A stretch of DNA of 32,000 nucleotides, taken from Nostoc punctiforme PCC 73102 (lineage in GTDB: Bacteria; Cyanobacteriota; Cyanobacteriia; Cyanobacteriales; Nostocaceae). The translations under genes and the position numbers were made by a program. Shown here piece by piece: positions 14,899 through 16,269 of this stretch; positions within the stretch are counted from its first letter, which is position 1, and the number at the start of each line of letters is the position of its first letter. The notes under the pieces are model-generated. The model searched no databases. It was given only the letters and a program-made list of their open reading frames with translations, and was not told where the DNA came from. The DNA lies in NCBI RefSeq assembly GCF_000020025.1, contig NC_010628.1:4170001-4202000 (forward strand), in the 5' to 3' direction.

Positions 14899-16269
14899 GT
14901 GCAAACGACATCCAAAACAGTAGCCAATAAAGAACTATTATTGGATACATCGGAAACAAAGCGAAAAAAGCATTTTCAATTAATTGACAAAACATACAGC
15001 AACAACACTGAGTCTGATTACACTGAAAAAATAGAAGCCTTAGGCAAAAACTTTGATTATAGCAGTAACAGCAGTTCTTACTGGGGTGAGCGTGAACTTT
15101 CAACTTTATATGGCACGCCTCTTTATGAAGAGGCTTCAACTTCTCAAAAACTAGCTCTGAATCATTTATATTGGGTTGGACAGTATCAACACACAGCAGC
15201 TGCCGAATCCAATACCATGCTTTACAACCAAGTGACATCAGGTGTATTTACAAAGCTTGGTGGCTATCAAACCCTTTGTCAAGAGCTAGATTTGGAAACC
15301 CATCAAGAACGATTTCACATTGGTACGTTTCAAAGAATTGGGTATAAAACTAAGGTAGCTTTGCTTGGTAAACAATCCTTAGGTAATAGTCTTCACAAAA
15401 AGTTAGCTAAACCCAACACTAGTCTGTTAGGTAAGTTAAAGCTGCCGCAAAACAAGGAATCATGGTCATCTTTTCAAGAATCTACATTTAGAGCGATTAC
15501 TAAGCTGATGCATCGCCAGAATGCAGATTATTATTCCCGGTTCTTAGAAGAACGCGGTGTTGAGAGTATCCCCACTACAACTGATGGGTTAGCAGGAGTG
15601 ACAGCTTCTCTATCTGCTTTTAAATTCTTGACTTTGAACTGGGGTAGTTCACCTTTCATGGCAGCCCAGTATTACTCAGCTCGTATGATTGCTAATATGT
15701 CCCTCAAGGCTTATGAACATCGCTTCTTCAGACAGTTTAAAGAACTCGAAAGAAAAAACGATTTCATTCCTGCGCCTTTGCAAGTCTCCTATTATCATTT
15801 GTTGGATGAAGCTTTTCATACAACAATGTCTCATGTGATTTCTCAAGAGGTTTATAAAGATTTCCCTAAACCCACAGCCTATGAAAAACTGCTGTCTAAT
15901 ATTATTATTTACCGCTTGCAAAGTGGTTTGTTAAACGGATTGTCAGGAGGGTTGCCTGTCACCTTCCGAGATGATACCTCTTTTATGACCTCTTATTATC
16001 GATTACTGACTTCTCCGTTGTTTGGAATGTCTAGTAGTGATGCTATCTACTGGCTAGAGAAATGCTTGTGTCAAGAGCATGAAGGATTCCATTTGAATCT
16101 GAAGTATCAGCAAAGTCTGTTATCTGATATGCAGAAATTCTTTGGTCGCCTTGATTATCTGTGGCCTGTAAACCGTGAAATGCGCTTAATGGCTGCTGGT
16201 GGCTCAATTGAACAAGCTATCCAACGAAACAAATCCGCATTTGTCAAGTTTGCTGGTGCTGTTGTTTAA
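14899..16269 (+). CDS. Soluble diiron-carboxylate enzyme, putative CylC-type dimetal-carboxylate halogenase
   Basis: GTG start with GAGGAG 8 nt upstream. Two E-Xn-(D/Q)E-X2-H motifs are present. The first is E103 (15205-15207) followed by Q136-E137-R-F-H140 (15307-15318). The second is E273 (15715-15717) followed by D303-E304-A-F-H307 (15805-15819). There are no obvious transmembrane segments and no His boxes. The gene order FAAL-ACP-X equals CylA-CylB-CylC of cylindrocyclophane biosynthesis. Confidence 0.6.
   Translation: MQTTSKTVANKELLLDTSETKRKKHFQLIDKTYSNNTESDYTEKIEALGKNFDYSSNSSSYWGERELSTLYGTPLYEEASTSQKLALNHLYWVGQYQHTAAAESNTMLYNQVTSGVFTKLGGYQTLCQELDLETHQERFHIGTFQRIGYKTKVALLGKQSLGNSLHKKLAKPNTSLLGKLKLPQNKESWSSFQESTFRAITKLMHRQNADYYSRFLEERGVESIPTTTDGLAGVTASLSAFKFLTLNWGSSPFMAAQYYSARMIANMSLKAYEHRFFRQFKELERKNDFIPAPLQVSYYHLLDEAFHTTMSHVISQEVYKDFPKPTAYEKLLSNIIIYRLQSGLLNGLSGGLPVTFRDDTSFMTSYYRLLTSPLFGMSSSDAIYWLEKCLCQEHEGFHLNLKYQQSLLSDMQKFFGRLDYLWPVNREMRLMAAGGSIEQAIQRNKSAFVKFAGAVV

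Follow-up and report, generated by a model that had tools for sequence, protein, structure and literature searches.

CylC-type enzymes chlorinate unactivated carbons with high selectivity and are, to our knowledge, the only diiron halogenases known. CylC itself, the founding dimetal-carboxylate halogenase from the cylindrocyclophane pathway of Cylindrospermum licheniforme, acts on a fatty acyl chain held by an acyl carrier protein (ACP), chlorinating decanoyl-CylB at C6, and supplies a type III polyketide synthase (PKS)/resorcinol and CylK paracyclophane pathway. NocO, the biochemically best characterised member, belongs to the nocuolactylate pathway of Nodularia sp. LEGE 06071 and chlorinates the terminal carbon of dodecanoyl-NocM; for both CylC and NocO the chlorination of acyl-ACPs was carried out in vitro (PMC12101540). 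NglC is encoded in Nostoc punctiforme ATCC 29133 by the nostochloroside (ngl) cluster, which consists of the NglR thioesterase (Npun_R3355, reverse), a FAAL (fatty acyl-AMP ligase), an ACP, NglC (Npun_F3358), NglD, NglE, NglF and NglG (Npun_F3362) (Nat Chem 2024, PMC10849952). Here we describe the open reading frame (ORF) 14899..16269 (+) of a stretch of 32,000 nt, referred to as the window and used for all numbering, which an initial annotation had read as a putative CylC-type halogenase. We find that this gene, called the halogenase below, very probably encodes a soluble, ferritin-like diiron-carboxylate enzyme of the CylC family and is the counterpart of NglC in a nostochloroside-type chlorinated-glycolipid cluster.

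The window is colinear with ngl, in that a divergent thioesterase gene is followed by genes for a FAAL, an ACP, the halogenase, two PKSs, an altered ketosynthase (KS)-ACP protein and an NglG-like protein (Table 1). The likeness reaches down to a single residue. NglF is a KS with an H344Q change, leaving a C-Q-H triad, and a proposed transthiolase (PMC10849952), and the KS-ACP of the window shows the identical change at the identical residue number, Q344 within EVQGTST. NglG, a hypothetical protein that bears a docking domain, was proposed as the assembly-line terminator and guessed to be an aldolase (PMC10849952). The nostochlorosides themselves carry a 6-O-methyl-gulose, hydroxyls at C1, C2 and C6, and a chlorine at C12 of a palmitate-derived C21 lipid, and deuterium feeding indicates that NglC gives 7-chloropalmitoyl-ACP (PMC10849952). 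Module 1 of the window, whose only reducing domain is a ketoreductase (KR), fits the C6 hydroxyl of this lipid, and the fully reducing module 2 fits its C4 methylene. The nearest complete genome is that of Nostoc sp. C117, where the halogenase is 96% identical and the cluster region has ~94% nucleotide identity to the window. Downstream of the core, C117 encodes two short-chain dehydrogenases/reductases, a FAD_binding_4/ALO oxidase, a NAD-dependent epimerase, a GMC oxidoreductase, a GT4 glycosyltransferase, a methyltransferase and a CylK-like protein. The epimerase, the glycosyltransferase, the O-methyltransferase and the CylK homologue with an RTX domain are likenesses of C117 to ngl; the GMC oxidoreductase and the FAD/ALO oxidase may be additional. 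The CylK-like protein of C117 has 853 aa and combines an SBBP beta-propeller with RTX, as described for the CylK homologue NglO, and its N-terminus MKTSQKSTKKPK resembles that of NglO, KTIKKSTKKTI, as encoded by a published cloning primer. Judged by gene order and content, the closest characterised context of the halogenase is the ngl cluster rather than cyl. CylC shares with it the PF28091 match, the FAAL-ACP-halogenase order and the nine-residue signature described below, and the difference lies downstream, where the halogenase is followed by type I PKS modules and, by inference, by glycolipid tailoring.

Membership of the CylC family is supported because the protein has a PF28091 match, is 67-69% identical to homologues listed in the literature, carries nine residues equivalent to those of NocO and stands in a published class of gene neighborhood. 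The Pfam match, PF28091 "CylC-like", is a precomputed one, our local Pfam copy being without this model; it is borne by the halogenase protein itself and likewise by the best 120 of the 790 homologues found in a large protein collection, which are 55-91% identical to it and of equal length. The homologues at 67-69% identity, L009 and L011 (Table 1), are both among the cylC homologues that Eusebio et al. 2021 give in their Table S1. Similarity extends to a homologue on a contig of the 'Candidatus Gracilibacteria' assembly SU_1_2 (L014, 64% identical) and to plasmid-borne homologues of Gloeothece PCC 7822 (53.8%) and Stanieria NIES-3757 (AP017376.1, 42.9%), the latter also in Table S1. A CylC homologue from a Gracilibacteria metagenome, NJK50442.1, which may or may not be the L014 protein, was screened by Wang et al. 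2025 (PMC12101540). Only 110 clusters reached E <= 0.001 when 1.84 billion cluster representatives were scanned exhaustively with HMMER, so that the family is a small one. Clusters with the order FAAL-ACP-CylC-type I PKS form a class of CylC clusters that has been published under the name 'type I PKS' (Eusebio et al. 2021, PMC8406957), and of the best 80 related genomic loci, all at ~50% identity or more, about 66 have a FAAL upstream and about 75 have a type I PKS directly downstream. The thioesterase is kept upstream in L001, L002, L004 and L006, and where the flanks reach far enough the NglG-like gene is found in 22 of the 80 loci, GT4 in 11 and the CylK-like gene in 9. No NCBIfam model matches the halogenase, a look-up of the cluster members of ten family representatives gave no characterised protein names, and a query of 101 aa of NocO peptides rebuilt from primers returned one partial fragment from an unrelated strain only. 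The CylC-type assignment of the initial annotation, including the position directly after FAAL and ACP as for CylC, is borne out by these findings, and the halogenase is an uncharacterised further member of a known family, which leaves knowledge of the family unchanged.

The residues that define the family are all in place. Wang et al. 2025 (PMC12101540) described nine conserved residues, seven of them within the motifs QExxH and HxxDExxH, which in NocO are E94, Q128, E129, H132, E252, H279, D282, E283 and H286. All nine alanine variants of NocO are inactive, six of them losing iron and Q128A, E252A and D282A retaining it; NocO has a diiron cofactor by Mossbauer spectroscopy and gives no hydroxylated product (PMC12101540). 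Their equivalents in the halogenase are, in the same order, E103, Q136, E137, H140, E273, H300, D303, E304 and H307. When the NocO motif peptides, rebuilt from published mutagenesis primers, were compared with the halogenase, three of the four aligned locally at the expected places with 12-13 identities over 19-22 residues, and the fourth, around E94, matched in register (ExxxxxYN). The glutamates and histidines of both ExxH motifs align with the family metal ligands in these peptides and also in two alignments, A1 with 43 homologues at 55-91% identity and A2, in which the family is represented by 20 full-length sequences of 24-54% identity. None of the nine residues varies among the 43 homologues of A1; in A2 seven are invariant, and Q136 and E273 are at least 90% conserved, the position of E273 being Q in two distant representatives, the same exception that Wang et al. 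reported for the family. QExxH and HxxDExxH occurred together in only 1 of 20,000 shuffles of the halogenase protein, and the pattern is not chance. Compared with NocO, the interval from helix 2 to helix 3 is longer by ~13 residues.

The ligand pattern given by the initial annotation can be refined. The residues that it named (E103, Q136, E137, H140, E273, D303, E304 and H307) all stand at their positions, but it had missed H300 of HxxDExxH, and E273 is probably a second-sphere residue and not a ligand. By analogy with NocO, the first sphere of the halogenase is predicted to consist of 3 His and 3 Glu, with H300 as the third His ligand. NocO E252 is predicted to lie outside the first sphere, where it may leave a chloride site open (PMC12101540), and the placement of E273 may in the same way leave the site of the halogenase open for chloride. 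A further doubt had been raised over the first motif having QE rather than DE, and this is resolved because QExxH is the hallmark of the CylC family, in which it is both the norm and diagnostic; the family Gln stands where AurF has Asp (D135) before the first ExxH (PMC12101540).

A third conserved cluster, C389-L-C391-Q-E393-H394-E-G396-F-H398 (window 16063-16092, halogenase residues 389-398), lies outside the nine residues studied in the literature consulted. In the 43 homologues C391, E393 and G396 do not vary, and C389, H394 and H398 show at least 90% conservation; in the wider family this level is reached by C391, H394 and G396. This cluster might be a functional site, e.g. one where ferredoxin or the ACP docks or where an extra metal is bound, and might in this way help to explain halogenation.

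The predicted fold agrees with the four-helix-bundle diiron-type protein that the initial annotation had proposed. The AlphaFold2 (AF2) model made with the 43-sequence alignment is all-helical (mean predicted local distance difference test, pLDDT, 87.2; predicted template modelling score, pTM, 0.84), and its long helices 81-117, 124-156, 252-285 and 292-316 carry E103, QExxH, E273 and HxxDExxH, respectively, so that in the model the predicted ligands sit on the core helices of a ferritin-like bundle. Nearly all of the best Foldseek matches in the PDB are ferritin-like dimetal enzymes, with target-normalised template modelling (TM) scores of 0.44-0.56, among them the R2-like ligand-binding oxidase (R2lox), the ribonucleotide reductase (RNR) R2 proteins of Chlamydia and E. 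coli, CmlI, AurF and stearoyl-ACP desaturase. AurF/CmlI, R2lox, RNR R2 and acyl-ACP desaturase share the four-helix-bundle core with its E...ExxH...E...ExxH pattern and are the nearest solved folds; in PDB sequence searches neither the halogenase protein nor the 43-sequence profile found a match. With AurF and CmlI among the fold neighbors, and with PF11583 (AurF) as the only match in the local Pfam (E 2.6e-5, residues 63-147), it could be argued that the protein is an arylamine N-oxygenase of the AurF/CmlI type. However, at 24 bits this match stays under the gathering cut-off of 29.6, the halogenase is ~150 residues longer, has Q at the equivalent of AurF D135, is predicted to have 3 His/3 Glu with an open position, and differs from these enzymes in chemistry and substrates; moreover, it stands in a FAAL/ACP/PKS context with no aminoarene pathway genes. 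We rejected this candidate, whose probability we consider negligible.

A membrane desaturase of the JamB type was also rejected, being disfavoured by the absence of hydrophobic segments and of a FA_desaturase Pfam match. The halogenase is hydrophilic (grand average of hydropathy -0.44) and has no membrane segment, because its most hydrophobic 19-residue window averages only 0.97 on the Kyte-Doolittle scale, which confirms what had been said at the outset about hydrophobic segments. A loose search for His-rich spacings gave three (HQERFH at 135, HTTMSH at 307 and HEGFH at 394), two of which fall inside the diiron motifs; the desaturase His-box consensus motifs themselves were not scanned.

The gene is real and under purifying selection. 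As initially annotated, it encodes 456 aa from a GTG start, which is preceded by a Shine-Dalgarno-like sequence (Table 1), and the start, length and stop are kept in the three closest orthologues (L001-L003). A scan of 11200-16500 for promoters and terminators gave signals no better than shuffles and showed no terminator in the ACP-halogenase interval, and an Rfam scan of the window had zero matches. Mobile-element remnants lie nearby, namely an IS630-like remnant and an insertion resembling a miniature inverted-repeat transposable element (MITE) in the FAAL-ACP spacer, and IS66 fragments upstream, and they could be taken as signs of an inactive relic in a decaying cluster. The intact frame, the full set of catalytic residues, dN/dS values of 0.10-0.14 against orthologues, the intact state of all neighboring cluster genes and the presence of an identical protein in 82 blocks of independent read-set assemblies make such a relic very improbable, and a pseudogene was rejected on the frame and the selection.

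The most likely function, by analogy with characterised relatives, is mid-chain chlorination of a FAAL-loaded long-chain acyl-ACP. Following what is known of CylC, NocO and NglC, it can be hypothesized that a long-chain fatty acid (probably palmitate) is adenylated by the FAAL, which then transfers it to the stand-alone ACP, and that the halogenase would bind this acyl-ACP with a diiron site held by E103, E137, H140, H300, E304 and H307 and with Q136, E273 and D303 in the second sphere. A ferredoxin system would reduce the diiron site, which would then activate O2; a high-valent intermediate would abstract hydrogen from an unactivated methylene, and iron-bound chloride would rebound onto the carbon radical to give a chloroacyl-ACP, the position being C7 of palmitoyl in ngl. 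The chloroacyl starter would be extended twice, by KS-AT-KR-ACP and then by KS-AT-DH-ER-KR-ACP (AT, acyltransferase; DH, dehydratase; ER, enoylreductase), pass the KS(Q344)-ACP and be released by the NglG-like protein. Downstream genes, as in C117, would glycosylate and O-methylate the lipid, after which the alkyl chloride could serve the CylK-like enzyme as an electrophile.

The initial annotation had cautioned that sequence cannot prove halogenation over hydroxylation, and this caveat stands. The same fold and ligand set are common to hydroxylases, desaturases and N-oxygenases, no sequence feature is proven to dictate halogenation, and a nostochloroside-type lipid bears hydroxyls too, all of which would suit an enzyme that hydroxylates or desaturates the acyl-ACP with no halogenation. 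Against this, the protein has the full set of nine halogenase-family residues, with Q136 standing where AurF has its aspartate; every characterised PF28091 member (CylC, NocO, NglC, BrtJ and others) is tied to chlorination, NocO without a hydroxylated product; the C6 hydroxyl is accounted for by the KR of PKS module 1; and a CylK-like enzyme of the alkyl-halide-using type is encoded in the same cluster of the nearest genome, C117. We therefore regard hydroxylation or desaturation as improbable. Slightly less probable still is halogenation at a later stage, when the chain is a PKS-bound or released intermediate and no longer the FAAL-loaded starter. An adjacent FAAL or ACP is lacking for some CylC homologues, namely BrtJ and those of Rieske-type clusters (PMC8406957), but the gene described here directly follows FAAL and ACP genes, as do those of the acyl-ACP-starter enzymes CylC and NocO, FAAL linkage is common among the related loci, and the ngl feeding data lead to 7-chloropalmitoyl-ACP.

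Several points weigh against the assignment of the halogenase as an NglC counterpart that chlorinates acyl-ACP. The direct comparison with characterised members, i.e. CylC, NocO and NglC, consists of the rebuilt NocO peptides and the literature-listed homologues. The Foldseek E-values to the PDB are weak, at 0.019 or worse, and the geometry of the metal site is a sequence-based prediction. What was observed is gene structure, family, residue conservation, predicted fold and synteny, and from these we infer the identity of the metal, the chlorination, its regiochemistry and the product. The glycosyltransferase and CylK-like genes lie beyond the window and were observed in the related genome C117 only. 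Finally, regiochemistry or chain length may differ from that of NglC. The halogenase is probably no more than ~55% identical to NglC, because N. punctiforme is represented neither in the best 120 proteins, all of which have 55% identity or more, nor in the best 80 loci, and for this reason a prediction of C7 and C16 deserves moderate weight only. It follows that a different selectivity in chain length and position is possible, which together with the NglG-like and CylK-like partners could mean an undescribed chlorinated or ether-linked glycolipid, with C389-H398 as a possible functional site; we hold this more far-reaching version to be rather doubtful.

Table 1 Coordinates of the halogenase, its active-site codons, the neighboring cluster genes (numbering of the window) and two listed homologues
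Feature	Position	Strand	Evidence or remark
Free-standing thioesterase, divergent, NglR (Npun_R3355) counterpart	10429..11274	-	Pfam Thioesterase E 4.2e-42
FAAL	11873..13702	+	Pfam AMP-binding E 3.3e-70; several NCBIfam fatty-acid--AMP ligase models, E down to 1e-138
Stand-alone ACP, GLDSS serine motif, presumed carrier of the halogenase substrate	14423..14740	+	Pfam PP-binding E 9e-16
Shine-Dalgarno-like GAGGAG	14886..14891	+	7 nt 5' of the halogenase GTG start; direct reading of the sequence
CylC-family halogenase homologue, 456 aa, putative NglC counterpart	14899..16269	+	PF28091, nine residues, AF2 fold, dN/dS
E103 codon, predicted helix-1 carboxylate ligand (NocO E94)	15205..15207	+	ExxxxxYN register matches rebuilt NocO peptide; invariant in A1 and A2
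Q136-E137-R-F-H140 codons, QExxH, helix 2 (NocO Q128, E129, H132)	15304..15318	+	Local alignment to NocO peptide ETYQERQHIHAFSQINYKTTKA
E273 codon, helix 3 (NocO E252)	15715..15717	+	Aligns to NocO ANLLLKNHE
H300-L-L-D303-E304-A-F-H307 codons, HxxDExxH, helix 4 (NocO H279, D282, E283, H286)	15796..15819	+	Aligns to NocO PTAISHYHFLDEAFHTTTS
Type I PKS module 1, KS-AT-KR-ACP, NglD counterpart	16429..21183	+	Pfam domains; active Cys and both His present
Type I PKS module 2, KS-AT-DH-ER-KR-ACP, NglE counterpart	21201..27833	+	Pfam domains; C-H-H triad present
Altered KS-ACP without AT domain, NglF-like	27879..30200	+	Pfam KS, PP-binding; EVQGTST, Q344, triad C-Q-H
NglG-like protein, runs past the window end	30243..32000	+	TubC_N docking domain E 1e-18, then ~530-560 aa without Pfam model
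L009, Nostoc sp. NIES-4103	AP018288.1:c3294496-3293132		Table S1 cylC homologue
L011, Nostocales HT-58-2	CP019636.1:1098629-1099993		Table S1 cylC homologue; drawn in 'type I PKS' class

The NglG-like protein at the end of the window has 695 homologues of ~620 aa, almost all of them cyanobacterial and often annotated as 'non-ribosomal peptide synthase' or hypothetical. The domain of ~560 aa that follows its docking domain is strongly conserved. The protein is 97% identical to P0121 (620 aa) of Nostoc sp. C117, and the absence of N. punctiforme from the best matches suggests that it is less than ~62% identical to NglG. By analogy with the role proposed for NglG, it may represent a new kind of enzyme for the release of PKS chains. 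In the PKS genes upstream of it, the AT-domain regions (18025-19075 and 22923-23973) have 94.8% nucleotide identity over 1,051 bp, and because this identity has sharp borders with flanks at background identity, it points to gene conversion or homogenisation between the two modules.

The 720-bp spacer between FAAL and ACP holds the remnant of an IS630/Tc1-like DDE transposase at 13740-13865 (translation EDLLFVDEVGLNLGMARQFGWALSEQRAYGTRP*) and a MITE-like insertion of ~142 bp at 13885-14026 with a perfect 18-nt inverted repeat (13893-13910/14009-14026). The MITE-like insertion is absent from Nostoc sp. C117 (L002), and Desmonostoc geniculatum (L001) has neither this insertion nor the transposase remnant; L061 contains a copy with 75% identity to the MITE-like element. 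On the other side of the thioesterase, pieces of an IS66-family transposase lie at 2006-3589 (-), consisting of 373 aa with DDE_Tnp_IS66, zf-IS66 and DUF6444 and of a 114-aa helix-turn-helix ORF, and they are mobile-element debris at the edge of the cluster. The ORFs 222-974 and 1609-1917 had no Pfam matches. Between the IS66 pieces and the thioesterase, the ORF 4211-9292 (-) encodes a protein of 1,692 aa in which 33 stretches of RTX calcium-binding repeats are the only recognisable feature. Its association with the cluster may not be accidental, since a related RTX or calcium-binding protein adjoins the cluster in L001, L002, L004 (Calothrix), L006 (Microcoleus) and the Gloeothece PCC 7822 plasmid.

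This last plasmid, NC_014533.1 of Gloeothece verrucosa PCC 7822 (L086, 340063-381385), carries a CylC homologue that RefSeq annotates as 'hypothetical protein'. The FAAL/ACP/halogenase/PKS core is joined there by genes for a sulfotransferase, an SBBP (CylK-like) protein, a calcium-binding protein and a DevBCA-type exporter, a gene content which suggests that the cluster makes a sulfated or exported variant of the lipid.

As for what the halogenase means for its family, no CylC-family member has a solved structure, and neither the halogenase nor the family profile matches any chain in the PDB; thus, each extra well-delimited homologue is a screening candidate. With an ACP and a FAAL of its own, the halogenase is a candidate for screens of expression and solubility, which have limited the field. 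It also marks an ngl-like cluster in a Desmonostoc/Nostoc lineage, so that the strain becomes of interest for metabolomics under halide depletion and for studies of NglG-type chain release.

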